Shown: positions 3,184 to 51,197, counted from the stretch's first letter. The stretch: 64,000 bases of DNA from a bacterium (GCA_030650415.1 JAUSEG010000017.1:16885-80884), one strand, 5' to 3'. Numbers and translations: made by a program. The notes: a model not told the origin generated them from the letters alone.

Positions 3184-4797
3184 ATGGTGAGACAAAGTCA
3201 AATTTTTGCAAAGATAATAGTATTCTTTCTAATATTACTGCTGGCTCAAATGGCCGGTGGTTTTATTTACGCTTCTGAACCGGCGGCGCAAGATGAAAAT
3301 TCGTTTTTCATTAATATTAATAAGGCCACCGCCGATAAGGGCTATGCCATAAAAGCTTTGGCCGGTCAGTTTAGCCTTTCTTTACCCAAGGGAATTTTAA
3401 AAGACGCTACCGGAGTGGAAATAAAAAAAGTTAATGAAGATATGGATTTGCCTTGGCAGCTGGAAAAATTAAGCGAAATTTATCAGTATGAAATTATTAA
3501 TAAAACGGCTTATGACGGTAAAAAACCGCTAACGGTTGAGATTAAATATAATCAAGCGTCTTATTACTATAAGCAAGTTTATTTTTACGACAAAAATTAT
3601 TCTTCTTGGCGGCCGCTTTCCTGCAAGGAAATTTTTGACAAAAGTTCCGTTAGATGCGAAGTGCCGTTTAATTTCGCCCGATTGGCCGTCTTCGCCAATC
3701 CCAATGTCTTAGCCATCGGCAAAGCCAGCTGGTATAGCTACAAAAAAGGCAACTTTACAGCCTCGCCGGATTTTCCCAAAGGTTCAAAATTGCGTGTCTA
3801 TAATTTGGATAACGGTAAATTTGTAGATGTGGTAGTCAATGACTTCGGGCCGGAAAGAAAATTGCATCCTGATCGGGTGGTTGACTTGGAAAAAACCGCT
3901 TTTAGTAAAATTTCCAATATAAAACAGGGAACCATTAAAGTCAGAGTTGAACTCATTTCTCTTGGAGTTAAGTCCGAAAGATTATTTGGCATAAGCAATC
4001 AGGGAGCAAAAAACCAACCGGTGATAACGGCTAAGTCGGCTATTGTTATGGATGAACAGACCGGAGATATTCTATGGCAGAAGAACGCGACCAGCACTCT
4101 ACCTTTAGCCAGTCTTACAAAACTCGTTGCTATTAGAGCTTTTTTAGATACCAGGCCGAGCTTGAATAAAATAGTCGCTTACAGTATTAGAGATGAAGAA
4201 TATAATTATGAATATGTAAATAAATGGGAGTCGGCCAGGTTAAAATTAGCCGACGGCGATACTCTAACCATCGAAGATTTACTTTACGCGGCCTTAGTGG
4301 GTTCAGCCAATAACGCGGTTGAAACCCTAGTGCGCTCGAGCGGTTTAACCCGCAGTGAATTTATTAAGAATATGAATGATCTAGCGGCCGGTTGGGGCGC
4401 GTCAGCGACTCATTTTATCGAGCCGACCGGCTTGGCGCTGGAGAATGTGAGTTCGGCTTATGATTATGCTATAATAAGTAAGGAGGTTTATACTCATCCG
4501 ATTATTCAGAAGGCCAGCACCATGTATAAATATAAATTTACCACTCTGAACACTAATAAAGCCCATACCATAGTTAATACCGATAAACTTTTAGAAGTCA
4601 GCAGTTTAAACATCACCGGCTCTAAGACCGGCTACTTGGACGAAGCGCAATATTGCTTAATGGCCAGAGCTGCCAATAAGAAAGGCGGGCAAGTTATCGC
4701 CGTTATCATGGGAGCGGATAGCCGAGAGAAAAGCTTTGCCGAAACCGAAGAGCTTTTAAAGTATGGATTAAAAAATTGGACGCTGGTTATTAAATAA
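3184..4797 (+). CDS. Fusion protein: RlpA-like double-psi beta-barrel domain plus D-alanyl-D-alanine carboxypeptidase (peptidase S11, PBP5-like)
   Basis: N-terminal hydrophobic signal. ASWYSYKKGNFTASPDFPKGSKLRVYNLDNGKFVDVVVNDFGP is RlpA/DPBB-like. The C-terminal half has SLTK (SxxK), SANN (SxN) and KTGY (KTG). Confidence 0.8.
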   Translation: MVRQSQIFAKIIVFFLILLLAQMAGGFIYASEPAAQDENSFFININKATADKGYAIKALAGQFSLSLPKGILKDATGVEIKKVNEDMDLPWQLEKLSEIYQYEIINKTAYDGKKPLTVEIKYNQASYYYKQVYFYDKNYSSWRPLSCKEIFDKSSVRCEVPFNFARLAVFANPNVLAIGKASWYSYKKGNFTASPDFPKGSKLRVYNLDNGKFVDVVVNDFGPERKLHPDRVVDLEKTAFSKISNIKQGTIKVRVELISLGVKSERLFGISNQGAKNQPVITAKSAIVMDEQTGDILWQKNATSTLPLASLTKLVAIRAFLDTRPSLNKIVAYSIRDEEYNYEYVNKWESARLKLADGDTLTIEDLLYAALVGSANNAVETLVRSSGLTRSEFIKNMNDLAAGWGASATHFIEPTGLALENVSSAYDYAIISKEVYTHPIIQKASTMYKYKFTTLNTNKAHTIVNTDKLLEVSSLNITGSKTGYLDEAQYCLMARAANKKGGQVIAVIMGADSREKSFAETEELLKYGLKNWTLVIK

Positions 4798-11661: not shown

Positions 11662-11688
11662 ATGAAAAATGGCAATACCGTCTTAATT

Positions 11689-18289: not shown

Positions 18290-18943
18290 TTACTGCGCGT
18301 CAACGGTATAGAGGGCGGCTACCTTTTTTTCCGCCTTAAGCCAATCCTCCGTTGCTTGACCATCCTTCCTCTCCTGCCATAGGTGCTTTGCTCGTTCCGT
18401 CCTTTCGGTTAGGGAGGGGATGTGGCCACTTTCCTTGATAAACAGATCCCAGGCATCGCACCAATTGTGCTGGCTTCTGTCCTGTTCGTAGCGACTCCAG
18501 ATGTGTTGCGCTGCTTTGGCTACAAGTTCATTGAACTCGGAGCGGTTGACCAACGATTTCTCGGCACGCGAGATACGTTCAAGTGTGATGACTCCGTCTG
18601 CTGTCAGACAGAGCAGGATCTTGGCGCAGTGTTCGTGTGTCTCGCAGGCGCTGATGATGACCTTAACGCCCGGACAGAGGCAGATGTCAGGGATAGGGCC
18701 ATAACAGGCTTCGGGCTTGAACATGGCCACGATACGTTTTCCGGCCGCCAGGCATTGCGCGATGGCATGGATATGATGGTAGCCGTATGAGCTGCGTCCT
18801 CTTTGCCCGCACACGAAACAGGTGGCATCCGGGTTTTGCCCGTGATATTGTTGGAGACCGTACTTGTCGGTGTAGAAGTACTCGCCTTCAGAAGGTTTTA
18901 GATCTGCCAATTCGGCAGTGCCCGTAGAATTAGTTTCTATCAT
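18290..18943 (-). CDS. High-GC orphan: Cys/His-rich N-terminal domain plus DUF2934-like C-terminal repeat(s)
   Basis: 217 aa. CFVCGQ..GYHHIH..C...C..CLC...CETHEHC..C gives about 9 Cys and 6 His in 75 aa. C-terminal RAKHLWQERKDGQATEDWLKAEKKV resembles the DUF2934 motif (E.W...G...G...DW..AE). 57% G+C in line 18601-18660. Confidence 0.7.
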   Translation of the reverse strand: MIETNSTGTAELADLKPSEGEYFYTDKYGLQQYHGQNPDATCFVCGQRGRSSYGYHHIHAIAQCLAAGKRIVAMFKPEACYGPIPDICLCPGVKVIISACETHEHCAKILLCLTADGVITLERISRAEKSLVNRSEFNELVAKAAQHIWSRYEQDRSQHNWCDAWDLFIKESGHIPSLTERTERAKHLWQERKDGQATEDWLKAEKKVAALYTVDAQ

Positions 18944-20389: not shown

Positions 20390-20395
20390 ATAATT

Positions 20396-20606
20396 GTCAT
20401 TGCGAGCGACCATCTTCCTTTTGTCATTCCGGCCTCCGCCAGCAGGCGGAGAGCCTGCTCCGGCAGGCGAAGCCGGAATCCAGAAATTTGTTCGTGGCAC
20501 TGAATTCTGGATTCTCATGGCTACGCCAGATCTCGCGTAGCGATGACCGCCTGCGCGGGAATGACAAAGAGGAGATTGCTTCGTCGCTGAAGCTCCTCGC
20601 AATGAC
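20396..20606. repeat. Cluster of about 6 GC-rich hairpin modules
   Basis: gtcattgcgagc.., gtcattccggcctccgccagcaggcggag.., ggctacgccagatctcgcgtagc (reverse complement of the 2993 module), ccgcctgcgcgggaatgaca, ..ctcctcgcaatgac. Confidence 0.85.
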
Positions 20607-20620
20607 AGAAATATTTTAAT

Positions 20621-22394: not shown

Positions 22395-22589
22395 ATGGCA
22401 AATAATATGACAATTGATGAATTGGCCGGAATGATAAAAGGAGAATTTGATAATGTTGGTGGAAAATTTGATAAAGTTAACGGTCGTTTTGATAAAATTG
22501 AAAGTGAAATGGCAAAAGGCTTTAAAGAATTAAAGGATGATCATGAGAAGCTTGAATTAAAAGTATCCAATGCCTGCCCTGTTAGATAA
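22395..22589 (+). CDS. Small coiled-coil protein, interrupted near its 3' end by a 104-nt element
   Basis: 64-aa ORF. The last 4 codons plus stop (CPVR*) lie inside element 22573..22676. See 22677..22747 for the displaced remainder. Confidence 0.6.
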   Translation: MANNMTIDELAGMIKGEFDNVGGKFDKVNGRFDKIESEMAKGFKELKDDHEKLELKVSNACPVR

Positions 22590-22676
22590 GTTTGATTTAT
22601 TGGAAAAATAAATTATTTAAATATATCGCTGTGATTAATTTGTGAAATATAAAGTCAATTTATCTAACGGGGTGAA
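22573..22676 (+). mobile_element. Hairpin-bounded 104-nt element (family E, copy 2, no tRNA)
   Basis: Termini CCTGCCCTGTTAGATAA ... TTATCTAACGGGGTGAA match those of 8646..8798, with two compensatory arm changes. The inner ATATCG/TGTGA flanks are also shared. Confidence 0.6.
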
Positions 22677-22747
22677 CCTATCGCTTTGAGTTGGTTGAAT
22701 TGCAAAAACGAGTGGAACTTTTAGAAAAGAAGGTTTTAAAGAGTTAA
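22677..22747 (+). other. Displaced 3' coding segment of the 22395 gene
   Basis: Deleting exactly 22573..22676 joins ...KVSNA to YRFELVELQKRVELLEKKVLKS* in frame (23 stop-free codons in AT-rich DNA, same heptad-like character). Confidence 0.5.
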
Positions 22748-22782
22748 AGAGCTGGCTTAAAAAAATAATAAAGAGAAATAAT

Positions 22783-23145
22783 ATGCTAGAGGAAAAAGAT
22801 ATTCAATCTATCGGAGAGTTGCTTGATAAAAAGTTAAAGAATCAAAAGGATGAAATTGTAGCTGAAATAGGGTCGGCAACGAGTGAAGCCTTTAGCGCTG
22901 TTGAAAGCAGTTTAGGAAAGCTTGAAACTAAGGTTGATAAATTAAGCGAAGAAATGTCGCTTCGTCCGACTTTAAATCAAATCATGAATTGGGGAGACAA
23001 AAAAATAGTCGCGCTGGAATTGGATATGGACAAGGTAAAGTATCTTCATCAAGAAGAGTTTAATAAACTGCCGCCGCAGGCGGAAATTAGCCGGAGATTG
23101 GTTGAATGCGGTTTAAAAGAAAAAACAGCGCATCCGGTTAAATGA
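22783..23145 (+). CDS. Hypothetical coiled-coil protein
   Basis: 120-aa ORF with no recognisable domain. It ends ...AHPVK* in a sequence (catccggttaaatga) loosely similar to family-E termini. Confidence 0.55.
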   Translation: MLEEKDIQSIGELLDKKLKNQKDEIVAEIGSATSEAFSAVESSLGKLETKVDKLSEEMSLRPTLNQIMNWGDKKIVALELDMDKVKYLHQEEFNKLPPQAEISRRLVECGLKEKTAHPVK

Positions 23146-23158
23146 TTTAATCATCTCT

Positions 23159-23293
23159 AAAAAAGCAAGCCCTTAATTAGGCTTGCTTTTTATATTTTCA
23201 GAAGTTTTATTTCGCTTGCGGTATTACGTTAACGATCTTGGTGGATACCAGCTCGCTATCATATTTCTTGATTTTCTTAGTGGTAAAAATGCG
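23159..23293 (-). pseudogene. Diverged duplicate of the rpmA 3' end plus its terminator (att-like island boundary)
   Basis: About 78% identical to 25686..25820. It encodes ...[26 protein letters not shown] versus the L27 end [26 protein letters not shown]. Terminator aagcaagcc-taattaag-ggcttgctttttt is retained. Confidence 0.8.
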
Positions 23294-23559
23294 GGCTCGG
23301 ACACGACAGAATCTAGATTTTCATATTGGAATGCGAAGGCGGAGGCTTTTTGAAAAAGTAAAATGGTGGTTGATTCAAAAATCAAAAAAAACCGAGCATC
23401 TCCAGTCGAGACACCCGGTCAAATGGTTACCCTAAGGGCATCCTAAAAAACTCGTCCGGTTGAAATTGTTTACACCGATGAACTTTGCTCTACGGATTCA
23501 CAAATTTATTGCAAACCCGATAAAGCAGGGAACCGAAGTTCCCTGAAACCGTCCGACCA

Positions 23560-23988
23560 TCAATTTAATGACGGGTCGACGGGCGTGACGGGAAGGCGAG
23601 GTGTTTGCGCTTTTGGTGCTTGCAGAACTGCCGTCATCAGTTTCGCAACTAGAATTGTTTCGGTGATGATGCAAAGCACAATCCCCAAAAAACAATTCCA
23701 GAACCTCGAGGGTGGACTGCCTCCAAGCATCCACGCATACCCAACAAAGCTCACAAAGAGCCCGACCAGTAGCACCACATAAAGCCGCTGGCGAAATTGC
23801 CTCTTGGCAAGTGCAAGGCTTACGCCCGCACCGATTCCCACAAATAATGTGGTGCGTGCCTCCCAAAGAGCCTTCGGCCAACTTTGGAGTTCGTCGAGCG
23901 CGAAGCTCGCTGTGAAAAACAGACCGCCCAAACCACAGGCGATTGTTCCGACAATTAACAGACCGATTTTGGTGTTTTTAGTATTCAT
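23560..23988 (-). CDS. Island gene A: 4-TM membrane protein
   Basis: The track ORF is 23560..24084. The ATG at 23988 (MNTKNTKIGLLIVGTIACGLGG...) avoids translating repeat R1. Four clear hydrophobic helices. Confidence 0.55.
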   Translation of the reverse strand: MNTKNTKIGLLIVGTIACGLGGLFFTASFALDELQSWPKALWEARTTLFVGIGAGVSLALAKRQFRQRLYVVLLVGLFVSFVGYAWMLGGSPPSRFWNCFLGIVLCIITETILVAKLMTAVLQAPKAQTPRLPVTPVDPSLN

Positions 23989-24049
23989 GCAATTTGCCGC
24001 CGTGCCATCACACCGAAGCAAGTTGCATGAATACTTGTTTAAAAGAACA

Positions 24050-24092
24050 AACTCTATGAATCCACCACACTTTGATGGACTCAATTGAGTGG
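24050..24092 (-). repeat. Island repeat R1 (imperfect palindrome)
   Basis: aactctatgaatccaccacactttgatggactcaattgagtgg, followed by the unique hairpin gggagattt..aaatccccc. Confidence 0.8.
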
Positions 24093-24189
24093 GAGATTTA
24101 TTTTGAAATCCCCCAAGATTTTGTGATGATTCTGTTGCCAGGTAATCACTCTACCCCGCGTGCCGAAGCCGCAGTGGAGCCGCTTTGGG

Positions 24190-24336
24190 CTAGGCCAGCA
24201 TGGACTCAGGCACAACCTTGAAGTTGGCCTCATCCACTGCCGCGCAATCATTCCGAAAGTCGCAGGCTTCGTCAAACAAAGCGAACGGCCCGGAATCCAG
24301 CATCCCATCGCGGGTGATGTAAAACGGAGCTTCCAC
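24190..24336 (-). CDS. Island gene B: 48-aa acidic protein (below the ORF-track cutoff)
   Basis: GTG start 8 nt after AGGAGG (24350..24345). Translation: VEAPFYITRDGMLDSGPFALFDEACDFRNDCAAVDEANFKVVPESMLA*. Confidence 0.45.
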   Translation of the reverse strand: MEAPFYITRDGMLDSGPFALFDEACDFRNDCAAVDEANFKVVPESMLA

Positions 24337-24363
24337 TCTTCTCACCTCCTTTCTTAAAGAACT

Positions 24364-24408
24364 GAACTCTATGAATCCGCAAAACTTTTTGTGGACTCAA
24401 TAAAGTGG
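24364..24408 (-). repeat. Island repeat R2
   Basis: gaactctatgaatccgcaaaactttttgtggactcaataaagtgg, followed by the hairpin ggatcaa-aagc-ttgatcc. Confidence 0.8.
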
Positions 24409-24532
24409 ATCAAAAGCTTGATCCGTTTCTCACAACTTTTTCTGGCATGTGACGCACAGGGATTTTTCATAATTTCCAACGCCTTCTTTTATTTATTCTC
24501 GCCGGAGGATTTCGAGTCAGGAAGTAGCCCAC

Positions 24533-24736
24533 CTACTTAATGAACCGTCGTAACCACTTGGGAATTTCCCAAAAGATTACGCAGGTCACTTCGTAAGGGT
24601 GGTGCTCACCTAATGTCTCGCGTTCACGACGCTCTGAATGGTACTTCGATTCATAAGCATCATTCTCGCTTTGACATCCGATGGACACCTGGCCACCTTT
24701 CCGCTTCGCCACATATGCAGTATGCAGCATCTGCAA
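24533..24736 (-). CDS. Island gene C: ~65-aa basic protein, start uncertain
   Basis: ORF ...MLHTAYVAKRKGGQVSIGCQSENDAYESKYHSERRERETLGEHHPYEVTCVIFWEIPKWLRRFIK*. First ATG at 24730. No clear SD. Confidence 0.35.
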   Translation of the reverse strand: MQMLHTAYVAKRKGGQVSIGCQSENDAYESKYHSERRERETLGEHHPYEVTCVIFWEIPKWLRRFIK

Positions 24737-24775
24737 CCAGCGCCACCACTTCTGGGCTTTACTGGTTTCTTCAAA

Positions 24776-24821
24776 GAACTCTATGAATCCACCACATCTA
24801 TGATGAACTCAATAAAATGGG
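24776..24821 (-). repeat. Island repeat R3
   Basis: gaactctatgaatccaccacatctatgatgaactcaataaaatggg, followed by the hairpin gggaatgt..acattccc. Confidence 0.8.
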
Positions 24822-24862
24822 AATGTTTGTTTGGCACATTCCCGAAAGCCGATTGAAACTGG

Positions 24863-25447
24863 TCAAGAAGATGGTTTTGTTTCAGTGACACTGACCATCT
24901 TTTGAAATCCTTCCTCGGTTACGAGGCCGGAGGCGATAGCCAGAGACGCGGCGGATCGTGCCGCACCTATACCGAAACCTCGCCTTTTCCCATTCATCTT
25001 TCCGAAGATGAATTGCGCCACTCGCTCCTGAAAGTCGATCTCCTCTGTCTGGTATTCAAGGCCGTGTTCAATAAAAAACCCGCTAATTAGACGAACGGCT
25101 TTTTTACCAACACCGCGGTAGTGAAGAAGCTGATAGTCGCTTTTACCACGGATGTCGCCGACTCGCTCAAACCCACACTTCGCCAACGGTCCAACGACCG
25201 AACCGGGGAAGACCTCTTCCAGCCGTAACATGTACAGCCCGACCCTGTCTCCCTTCAGCTTCTTTAATTTATTGGCTCGGGCGATTCGGGTTTCTGCCTC
25301 TTGGCGAATAGAACGTATCCGAGAAGAGGTAACCTTGAACCGATCAGCAATTGCCCTTACTTTCTCTCCGTTCGTCATTGCCGTCACAACGGCTTTTTCC
25401 CGATGGGTCAAGATTTCTAGGTTTTCGGCGCTGATATTAGTATTCAT
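24863..25447 (-). CDS. Island gene D: putative DNA-binding regulator (sigma70 region-4/LuxR-like HTH plus RpoA-CTD-like helix-hairpin-helix)
   Basis: LTHREKAVVTAMTNGEKVRAIADRFKVTSSRIRSIRQEA is an HTH. GPLAKCGFERVGDIRGKSDYQLLHYRGVGKKAVRLISGFF resembles alpha-CTD HhH. The 10-bp inverted repeat attgtgaat..attcacaat lies upstream. Confidence 0.55.
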   Translation of the reverse strand: MNTNISAENLEILTHREKAVVTAMTNGEKVRAIADRFKVTSSRIRSIRQEAETRIARANKLKKLKGDRVGLYMLRLEEVFPGSVVGPLAKCGFERVGDIRGKSDYQLLHYRGVGKKAVRLISGFFIEHGLEYQTEEIDFQERVAQFIFGKMNGKRRGFGIGAARSAASLAIASGLVTEEGFQKMVSVTETKPSS

Positions 25448-25736
25448 TGTTTTCCTTTTGTTTTTGTTGTTTGGTTAATTGTGAATCTAAAACCGGAAAA
25501 ATTCGAGTTCAAATTCACAATCAACCCAAAAGGAAAAAACTTAAGAATTCAAATTTAACTAGAGCATAAAATAATATAGCATATCTCATTCTGTTTGTCA
25601 ATACAAGTGGCAGTAAAATTATATATTTTAACTAAAATTAGCTAATTTATATTAATAGATTACGGATCAGAGGTCGCAATGACAATAAAAAAAGCAAGCC
25701 CAATTAAGAGTTTGCTTTTTTGTATTTTCAAAAGTT

Positions 25737-26021
25737 TTATTTCATTTGCGGTATGACATTGACGATTTTAGTGGCTACCAGTTTGCCATCGTATTTTTTT
25801 ATTTTTTTGGTGGTAAAGGTGACGAACCCGGCCACCATAGAGAATAGGGTATCGTCCTTGCCTTTTTCCACATTCTTGCCCGGCCGGTACTTAGTGCCGC
25901 GCTGGCGGATGATGATTGATCCGATTTTAGCGTAGCCGCCATCTTGGATTTTTACACCCAATCTTTTGCTTTGCGAATCGCGGCCGTAGACGGTTGAGCC
26001 GCCGGCTTTTTTATGCGCCAT
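25737..26021 (-). CDS. rpmA: 50S ribosomal protein L27
   Basis: [51 protein letters not shown] is the canonical L27 sequence. Confidence 0.97.
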
Positions 26022-48561: not shown

Positions 48562-48572
48562 ATTATTTGTTT

Positions 48573-48778
48573 GTCATTGCGGGTTTGACCTCGTCATCGC
48601 TACGCGAGATCTGGCGAAGCCACGACAATCCATGAGGTAGCCGTAAGTAAGTGAATTTAATATAATATTTACAAAATAATCGTTCGTGACATTTAATTCT
48701 GGATTCCGGCTCGTAGGCCGGAATGACAGATAAGGAGATTGCTTCGCCACCCTGATTACAAGGGTGGCTCGCAATGAC
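48573..48778. repeat. Cluster of GC-rich hairpin modules
   Basis: gtcattgcgggtttgacc.., tcatcgctacgcgagatctggcgaagccacga (same module as 2993..3024), ctggattccggctcgtaggccggaatgaca, ..ggtggctcgcaatgac. Confidence 0.85.
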
Positions 48779-48789
48779 ATAATAAAAAT

Positions 48790-51026: not shown

Positions 51027-51036
51027 AACTTTTATT

Positions 51037-51197
51037 GTCATTGCGAGCGATCCGCCTACTGGCGGAGAGCGCGGCAATCTCACGAACTCCATAACAATCA
51101 TAATACAATAGTGGCGATATTTAGCAAAATTTAGATATATGTGAGATTGCTTCGTCGTCCCCCACCAAACCTTGGTGGGGGACTCCTCGCAACGACA
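51037..51197. repeat. Cluster of GC-rich hairpin modules
   Basis: gtcattgcgagcgatccgcctactggcggag.., gagattgcttcgtcgtcccccaccaaaccttggtgggggactcctcgcaacgac. Confidence 0.85.

Follow-up and report, generated by a model that had tools for sequence, protein, structure and literature searches.

The early genes of phage T7 are separated by RNase III processing hairpins, and cutting of these hairpins leaves each message with a protective 3' hairpin. The 3' ends of tRNA genes are a classical target for integration, and the Patescibacteria, which have tiny genomes, have few recognised mobile elements. In streptococci, integrative and mobilizable elements (IMEs) occupy the 3' ends of the ribosomal protein genes rplL, rpmE, rpmG and rpsI (IME_SagNEM316_rplL, IME_Sga2069_rpmE, IME_SSalJIM777_rpmG and IMESag-rpsI), and cis-mobilizable elements (CIMEs) retain att-like ends without integrase or transfer genes (PMC5704250). 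Clustered hammerhead ribozymes flank single genes in prophage operons and cleave the polycistronic RNA in vitro (Perreault et al. 2011, PMC3088659). Here we describe a small island, bracketed by a duplicated end of rpmA (ribosomal protein L27), in a 64,000-nt stretch of bacterial DNA (GCA_030650415.1, JAUSEG010000017.1:16885-80884). This whole stretch is hereafter the window, positions are counted from its first letter, L-numbers denote compared loci or contigs and P-numbers compared proteins. By the relatives of its L27, the organism falls among Candidatus Falkowbacteria-like Patescibacteria. We propose that the island is an acquired operon punctuated by a structured RNA module, M2, that the modules would process its transcript and that its insertion imported an rpmA end of its own in an att- or CIME-like manner; as a whole, this reading seems to us evenly poised between right and wrong.

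The live rpmA gene (25737-26021, minus strand; 94 aa; Pfam Ribosomal_L27, E 3.2e-30) encodes a protein with 95% amino acid identity to its nearest relative, P0006. Its last 26 codons and stop (25737-25817), 3' untranslated region and intrinsic terminator form one copy of a direct repeat (25686-25820, minus strand). The other copy (23159-23293, minus strand) consists of an orphan rpmA end of 26 codons plus stop (23210-23290) and a perfect 12-bp terminator (23160-23191). The first-pass annotation, made from the sequence alone, had described this direct duplication of about 26 codons and a terminator, and blastn upholds it (E 5.6e-29), with an identity of 81% over 132 columns (23159-23293 against 25688-25817) in place of the ~78% first given. 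Its remark that the orphan terminator is the stronger of the two also holds (-19.5 kcal/mol with a perfect 12-bp stem versus -14.8 kcal/mol with one mismatch). Similarity between the copies sets in sharply at TTTACCAC, around codon 69, with unrelated DNA upstream of the residues FTTKK, and stops at the terminator T-tract. Besides these two copies, no rpmA-end match longer than 12 nt occurs anywhere in the 64 kb. The first copy completes rpmA and the second is an untranslatable orphan, which is the arrangement of flanking direct repeats by which IMEs and CIMEs are recognised; in the orphan frame there is a TGA upstream and then no ATG, GTG or TTG before FTTKK. The orphan hairpin lies 15 nt past the stop of a convergent 120-aa gene and can therefore act as a terminator for that gene.

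The source of this DNA is a contig of a metagenome-assembled genome (MAG), and such a structure could be mimicked if sequences of two strains had been fused at the rpmA repeat during assembly. No identical run between the repeats exceeds 14 nt, which rules out a k-mer mis-join, and two Logan contigs from run SRR13727527, assembled independently and overlapping inside the island, reproduce one junction each at 100% identity (L001, 24079-30698; L255, 20578-24108). We therefore regard an assembly artefact as extremely improbable.

The two rpmA ends have not simply drifted apart in place. Across the 78 coding nucleotides they differ at 16 sites, namely four first, one second and 11 third codon positions; ten of the differing codons are synonymous and four change the residue (pS ~0.64, pN ~0.09, dN/dS ~0.07). 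Neutral decay would be expected to put two thirds of the changes at codon positions 1 and 2, and the probability of finding five or fewer of 16 there is 0.004 (binomial, with an even spread over codon positions as the null). This substitution pattern shows that most of the divergence arose within working rpmA genes of different lineages. The histories of the two ends are separate because the differences are mostly synonymous and the orphan is untranslatable, and such separate histories fit an insertion that imported a homologous gene end. They argue against a history in which the rpmA 3' end was first duplicated in tandem on the spot, other DNA then entered between the copies and the redundant one decayed neutrally. 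That sequence of events would account for direct repeats in one locus and for a rare extra residue before the final K that is common to both ends (Q-M-K and Q-A-K, versus Q-K in most of 120 relatives). It would leave an orphan without a start codon, on which no selection could act in place, as the source of a bias in which 11 of 16 differences are third-position and 10 of 14 differing codons synonymous, with synonymous sites near saturation and only four residues changed; we disfavour it as very improbable. The shared extra residue indicates instead that the second lineage was a fairly close relative.

The DNA between the repeats is atypical of its surroundings. The island core (23391-25450) has a G+C content of 48.8% against 40.1% for the window, the highest 2-kb value (z = 2.9), and its tetranucleotide L1 distance (0.41 versus 0.23 +/- 0.036) ranks first of 248, so that no other 2-kb stretch of the window is as atypical. 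A compositional k-mer scan, which had been suggested as a check in the first-pass annotation, thus returned the island as the top outlier. The accompanying figure of ~58% G+C did not survive, since the core averages 48.8%; the 34 G+C of 60 at 23881-23940 are a local peak only, and the adjoining rpmA and pyrG reach 46-47%. The one other G+C peak of similar height, at 61.7-63.7 kb, was considered as another island and rejected, as it is dnaK.

Comparison of the rpmA-pyrG slot in related genomes gave a divided answer to the expectation that an empty interval would be found. The closest relatives (L008-L010, whose L27 is 95% identical) carry neither the island nor the orphan end, and neither hammerheads nor M2, and their slot is filled by a different insert of 766 nt. 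This insert (548-1312 in L009) comprises a consensus promoter and structured leader, followed by a membrane open reading frame (ORF) of 88 aa and a terminator. A shared origin of this insert and the island was considered and rejected: the likeness of the promoters is that of consensus sigma-70 only, and the transmembrane (TM) ORFs are unrelated. In L011-L014 synteny is lost downstream of rpmA, and the exact L27 sequence and the 120-aa neighbour were found in the same genome only. The rpmA-pyrG slot is a hot spot for small foreign units. Taken together, the compositional outlier status, the absence of the island from this slot in the closest relatives and the rarity of its first gene elsewhere indicate foreign DNA, and they support the view that 23294-25685 came in by horizontal transfer and is a self-contained minus-strand operon.

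The island is organised as one minus-strand transcription unit with a promoter, a structured leader, four small genes and an intrinsic terminator; the first-pass annotation had recorded neither this promoter and terminator nor the M2 modules described below. The promoter, strong and of the sigma-70 type (25573-25601; TTGACA, 17 nt, TATATT, with an upstream TG; 11/12 in a consensus scan) lies in surroundings of 27% G+C, and promoters of the form TTGAC...ATGCTAnnAT also head the arrays in L002, L004, L005, L007 and L096 that are discussed below. Ahead of gene 1 stands a leader hairpin of ~19 bp (25461-25538, an inverted repeat; -28.5 kcal/mol, z -5.3). The gene content read in the first-pass annotation (a protein with four TM helices, an acidic 48-aa ORF with AGGAGG-GTG, a basic ORF of ~65 aa and a 194-aa protein) is borne out by the ORFs. 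Gene 2 (24533-24736) is a basic ORF of 65-67 aa (65 aa as called on the Logan contig) without a family match, gene 3 (24190-24345) is an acidic ORF of 48-51 aa (48 aa in the gene call) preceded by AGGAGG-N7-GTG, and gene 4 (23560-23988) encodes a 142-aa membrane protein with four TM helices predicted from sequence and only sub-threshold Pfam matches. The start codon of gene 4 is sequestered in a hairpin (23980-24035, an inverted repeat; -31.3 kcal/mol, z -8.3), and the operon ends in a terminator with a 13-bp stem and T8 (23390-23420; -20 kcal/mol, z -5.3). Genes 2-4 have no relatives in the Pfam, PHROG or PADLOC searches or in any compared locus.

Gene 1 (24863-25447; 194 aa), the only conserved gene of the island, combines a sigma-70 region 4/LuxR-type helix-turn-helix (HTH), a helix-hairpin-helix region like the carboxy-terminal domain of the RNA polymerase alpha subunit (alpha-CTD) and a helical tail, as judged by Pfam and predicted fold. 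Its own Pfam scores stay below the cut-offs (GerE 17.8 bits, Sigma70_r4 16.6 bits), and homologues exceed the RNA_pol_A_CTD cut-off of 23.8 (P0130 30.1 bits, the ORF in L007 27.1 bits). The AlphaFold model has a pLDDT of 78 and matches alpha-CTD chains in Foldseek with a TM score of 0.8 and a root mean square deviation of 1.5 A over 63 aa, in agreement with the HTH and RpoA-CTD-like description given at first pass. Gene 1 has no catalytic domain and is probably a DNA-binding protein that serves as the regulator of the array. Searches of all island ORFs with Pfam, PHROG and PADLOC, which had been called for as a check, returned no significant family beyond the HTH and alpha-CTD signals.

The genes of this operon are punctuated by M2, of which the window holds three close copies on the minus strand: W3 (24769-24848; 62.3 bits with covariance model R1, fold z -4.6), W2 (24357-24429; 67.1 bits, z -6.5) and W1 (24042-24119; 62.9 bits, z -5.3). 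These account for three 45-nt repeats of the window, and M2 was also present in L004, L006 and L007. A divergent fourth copy, W0 (23478-23549, minus strand; 38.9 bits, E 3e-7, z -7.5), follows the last gene and has compensatory changes in the otherwise invariant lower stem; the fold z of the window copies thus spans -4.6 to -7.5. Searches with the same model found no M2 in the window beyond W0-W3 and none in 609 kb of unrelated DNA containing the two M2 words, and added copies in L059, L093 and L096, the L096 copy again lying after the final gene. A loose pattern scan of metagenome and viral collections returned mostly chance matches, from which local filtering left six true loci, all metagenomic (L059, L082, L093, L096, L116 and L128), and a stricter scan of the viral collection IMG/VR gave no true M2. 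In total there are 17 copies in ten loci, all intergenic and all on the gene strand. Rfam 15 contains no match to M2 at E <= 10.

In structure, M2 is a hairpin free of sequence constraint (P1) that directly abuts a long hairpin (P2). P1 has 7-14 bp, perfectly paired in 13 of the 13 copies examined and without sequence conservation; its stems were picked as the best hairpin, so that this pairing is partly by construction. P2 has ~17-20 bp and one bulge, with a nearly invariant lower stem (ACUUYAU-U-GAGU/AUUC-AUAGAGU) and a covarying upper stem, and a few bases 3' of the module stands a GYUCUUU box. In the alignment pairing extends to 97.5% of cells, and 10 of 17 pairs have changed on both sides, values reached by none of 500 shuffles, and slid registers lower the pairing to 37-55%. 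Positions 5-10 of P2 alone have 71 of 78 cells paired against 56.8 +/- 2.9 in shuffles, of which none of 5000 reached 71. Invariant G-U wobbles tie the fold to the sense strand.

The island has few known kin, and these link M2 to the hammerhead ribozyme. Homologues of gene 1, the one gene conserved across the family, numbered five among 5.8 billion proteins, and at E < 1e-30 they formed five clusters in a set of 1.84 billion representatives; they lie in other Patescibacteria and in other contexts. A gene 1 profile matched a single GTDB genome, the Saccharibacteria MAG L007, and nothing in IMG/VR or JGI metagenome scans, and among 50,697 phage and 72,556 plasmid records tblastn gave no match. 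Every contig with a gene 1 homologue has a type-III hammerhead on the gene strand: those of L002 and L003 exceed the Rfam cut-off with 51 bits, and those of L004-L007 score 30-36 bits with the CUGAUGA and GAAA core intact. Each cistron of these arrays is bracketed by either a type-III hammerhead or M2, and both occur together in L004, L006, L007, L096 and L128, the last two with two canonical hammerheads each. From these sequences, the island is a member of a rare family of arrays with module-punctuated cistrons in the Patescibacteria (the group that also bears the name candidate phyla radiation, CPR). The arrays stand after a tRNA 3' end in L004, between HU and rny in L002 and between a TrmB regulator and SLOG genes in L007.

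M2 itself is not a hammerhead, because it has no catalytic core, no NUH site with a stem III and no score with RF00008, for which 23100-25900 gave no match at E <= 10. Where the core would be, M2 has ACUUYAUUGAG and AUUCAUAGAG, and no stem III is conserved. The two modules occupy the same slots, have UGAGUCC at the start of the second hairpin in common and are followed by the same downstream box, and in L128 a chimera joins a hammerhead to a 3' tail of the M2 type, AUUCAUAGGGAAAGUUC. L006 differs from its close relative L005 by one extra unit of a 125-aa gene and M2, placed immediately after the GYTCTTT box of a hammerhead. This unit difference and a shared leader hairpin indicate that the arrays are modular and exchange units across Patescibacteria lineages. 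The hairpin in question is that at the start of gene 4, which is ~85% identical to L007 10655-10712 and recurs in L128 at ~1990-2050 and ~3480-3540, the ORFs diverging after 'MNT'; we take it to be probably a control of translation, carried along with the M2 or hammerhead module.

The island resembles clustered hammerheads in layout: modules on the coding strand bracket individual small, variable genes of a polycistronic unit, and the related arrays of L096, L128, L007 and L004-L006 carry type-III hammerheads in the same positions. Unlike those clusters, all four modules in the window are M2, the hosts are Patescibacteria, there is no prophage or integrase context, and nothing matches in the phage, plasmid and IMG/VR collections. 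With the RNase III sites of T7, M2 has in common that long irregular hairpins stand between cistrons, which is an analogy only; it differs in a lower stem that is invariant on both strands and in an obligatory adjacent P1, and these features point to more specific recognition or catalysis. A full-text literature search combining hammerheads or ribozymes with Patescibacteria, Saccharibacteria or CPR returned nothing relevant, so that hammerhead/M2 arrays appear undescribed in the literature searched, which is not proof of novelty.

Modularity of this kind could also mean that the modules, hammerhead or M2 together with the GYTCTTT box, are recombination sites at the DNA or RNA level in a cassette system without integrase, and that the rpmA duplication is incidental. 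A module follows every gene, the last included, close arrays differ by a [gene + M2] unit whose boundary lies near GYTCTTT, hammerhead and M2 are fused in the L128 chimera, a leader module is shared ahead of unrelated ORFs in the window, L007 and L128, and a truncated module ends the array. The likeness extends to clusters of attC sites lacking integron integrases (CALINs), which similarly have co-oriented, variable small ORFs with a structured element after each, one upstream promoter and gain or loss of units. The flanks of the modules (TTTCAAC/GTTCTTT), however, are not complementary and lie outside the RYYYAAC/GTTRRRY consensus; there are no complementary R''/R' core sites and thus no attC architecture, no IntI or other associated recombinase, and many of the elements are true ribozymes. 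Canonical hammerheads have kept their catalytic core, a sign that selection acts on the RNA, and ordinary recombination between repeated modules would also yield gain and loss of units. We consider a cassette system of this kind quite improbable as an account of the island.

We return to our proposal of an acquired, M2-punctuated operon. The operon would be transcribed as a single RNA, which the modules would cut or insulate into single-gene messages with protected, structured ends. An rpmA end and terminator would have come in with the foreign DNA, which would have recombined with the resident copy, leaving rpmA intact and one end displaced, in the attL/attR geometry of elements at the 3' ends of ribosomal protein genes. 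As no recombinase is encoded here or in the relatives, the catalyst of this step would have acted in trans or come from a gene that has since disappeared. The island is CIME-like and probably immobile on its own. Like an IME or CIME, it is a foreign segment between direct repeats, of which one completes a ribosomal protein gene and the other is displaced. Unlike those of PMC5704250, it sits in a Patescibacterium and in rpmA, which is not among the targets listed there, as the first-pass annotation had supposed. Its repeats are only ~81% identical with at most 14 identical bases, there is no remnant of an integrase, relaxase or replication gene, and related arrays elsewhere occupy unrelated sites without such repeats. 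The idea of an integration into the rpmA 3' end thus stands as far as a foreign island and a gene end of separate history are concerned, and falls short of a demonstrated site-specific recombination. An identity of the island as an integron, insertion sequence or miniature inverted-repeat transposable element (MITE) was rejected on architecture.

Several observations weigh against this proposal. No recombinase family or fold was detected in the island ORFs by Pfam, PHROG, PADLOC or structure matching, which bears out the reported lack of an integrase, transposase or excisionase, and none occurs in ten other ORFs of the window or in the array contexts of the relatives. Perfect identity between the repeats extends over 14 nt at most (GGGCTTGCTTTTTT, in the 3' half of the terminator); other identical runs are 12 nt around the stop codon and the 8 nt of TTTACCAC at the upstream edge, and any of the three could serve as an att core with none standing out. 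No unoccupied rpmA-pyrG site was found among the relatives compared. The other complete arrays (L002, L007 and L096) lack a flanking gene-end duplicate, so the repeat belongs to this insertion and not to the array family, and as these arrays also lack an integrase, the label 'decayed integrative element' fails as a property of the family. Directly beyond W0, a truncated M2 made up of the 5' flank and the 5' half of P1 (23447-23469, minus strand; 23 of 23 nt identical to L006 1238-1260, blastn E 4e-5) indicates that the array was cut at its distal end, which suits a cut fragment better than the precise end of an element. As for the RNA, M2 is without the CUGAUGA and GAAA core, NUH site and stem III of a hammerhead, and the processing role that we infer for the modules comes from position and analogy only. 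M2 could self-cleave through another core or be a site for a nuclease or other protein.

Much also depends on which of the two rpmA ends is native, which is ambiguous from the sequence. In the classical att geometry, the live end would have arrived with the element, one candidate answer to an ambiguous question. In favour of it, the block of similarity runs from a sharp intragenic point to the terminator end, a gene end that never replaced the host end would not stay under coding selection, and the orphan matches the L008-L010 lineage only (blastn), with the live end best matched in L011-L014. In favour of an arrival of the orphan, the live end is 85.5% identical to the outgroup L011, much as is the rest of the gene (84.8%), against 73.9% for the orphan, and the orphan carries residues, S and E, that none of the 120 relatives shows at these positions. 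The outgroup identities of the two ends differ by 3-8 nt, which is itself ambiguous and tells against our proposal, and all arguments on the native end rest on few nucleotides. A degenerate, genome-specific hairpin resembling repetitive extragenic palindromes (REPs) or MITEs (25655-25686, with TCGCAATGACA at 25674-25684) lies between the live terminator and the island promoter; standing immediately after the live terminator, it points to native DNA there, the reverse of the classical geometry and a further point against our proposal, although it could postdate the arrival of the island.

These features would also be produced by import of a chromosomal block. Transformed donor DNA comprising the array and a complete donor rpmA would have become attached downstream of the resident rpmA through recombination, either homology-facilitated or illegitimate, with no element-specific step, and the donor rpmA would then have lost its promoter and first 68 codons. 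Such an origin is favoured by the different ancestry of the ends and the purifying selection under which the orphan evolved, by the host-specific REP-like hairpin on the live side, by the match of the live end to L011 and the private residues of the orphan, by the truncated distal end and by the lack of a recombinase anywhere in the array family; natural competence is also reported for Saccharibacteria (PMC10187176). It requires two events, and the donor would have had to carry the array immediately upstream of rpmA, an arrangement seen in no compared locus. The sharp 8-nt onset of similarity and its end at the terminator are what an att block reaching from a crossover to the gene end predicts, and the array promoter of L004 directly follows the 3' end of a tRNA, a classical integrase target. 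We hold block import to be possible but doubtful, and retain insertion of an element with its own rpmA end as the preferred reading.

The island provides a concrete case for gene flow in the Patescibacteria, one without a recombinase and with boundaries that record how an insertion brought along an essential gene's end. Its most interesting component is the RNA element. The pistol, hatchet and twister-sister ribozymes are credited to searches beside known ribozymes, and M2, standing in ribozyme positions, is a candidate of the same kind for a catalytic or processing RNA that would be new, one that can be tested cheaply, and could serve as a natural insulator part in polycistronic expression. 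If M2 is only a nuclease site, it would be a modest extension of known operon punctuation. A bolder view would make M2 a new functional RNA class derived from, and interchangeable with, the type-III hammerhead (a self-cleaving ribozyme with another core, or a dedicated nuclease or recombinase site), and the arrays an undescribed, integrase-less cassette system moving among housekeeping loci (rpmA, tRNA, ruvC-ruvB, HU-rny); we think this view as a whole rather unlikely.

Some further observations concern the neighbourhoods of the related arrays. Flanking repeats were found at neither L096 nor L128. In L007, 19-nt direct repeats formed by the 3' half of a terminator (11121-11139/11781-11799) flank the adjacent SLOG gene and not the array, and in L002, 42-nt near-perfect direct repeats (3769-3810/5599-5640) flank the adjacent rny and not the array; both pairs may be a sign of recombination at terminators. 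A gene of the TrmB family stands beside the array in L002 (316-1044), L007 (7706-8452), L096 (6737-7495) and L128 (4483-5244), with none in the window. The inserted block of L096, between ruvC/yebC and ruvB, also holds a gene with a Bro-N domain. The L004 contig starts inside a tRNA (1-55; Rfam 33 bits), whose 3' end lies ~15 nt ahead of the array promoter. Its anticodon, read by eye, is GAA, so that it would be a tRNA-Phe; that the contig breaks at this point would be in keeping with repetition of the tRNA segment.

Other features of the window lie outside the island. The word TCGCAATGACA has ten matches in the window at one mismatch or fewer, against 0.9 expected, and forms one end of a REP/MITE-like repeat that runs from TGTCATTGCGA to TCGCAATGACA. 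This repeat has three full copies of 160-215 nt (20395-20607, 48572-48779 and 51036-51197) and solo hairpins (CCTGGATTGCGGCTCAGAGGCCGCAATGACA) near 11688, 17999, 25674 and 61690, and was not found in the loci of the relatives. Between pyrG and the orphan end lie two small coiled-coil genes on the plus strand (22395-23145; 64 and 120 aa; G+C 32-39%). Homologous pairs adjoin ParAB or a metallo-beta-lactamase gene (L256-L258), so that the pair resembles a floating two-gene module, and since the homologues of the 120-aa gene occur in unrelated contexts, it is no marker of the orphan's native neighbourhood. Finally, a 217-aa ORF with a DUF2934 tail on the minus strand (18290-18943) has ~55% G+C amid DNA of 35-40% and may likewise have been acquired.

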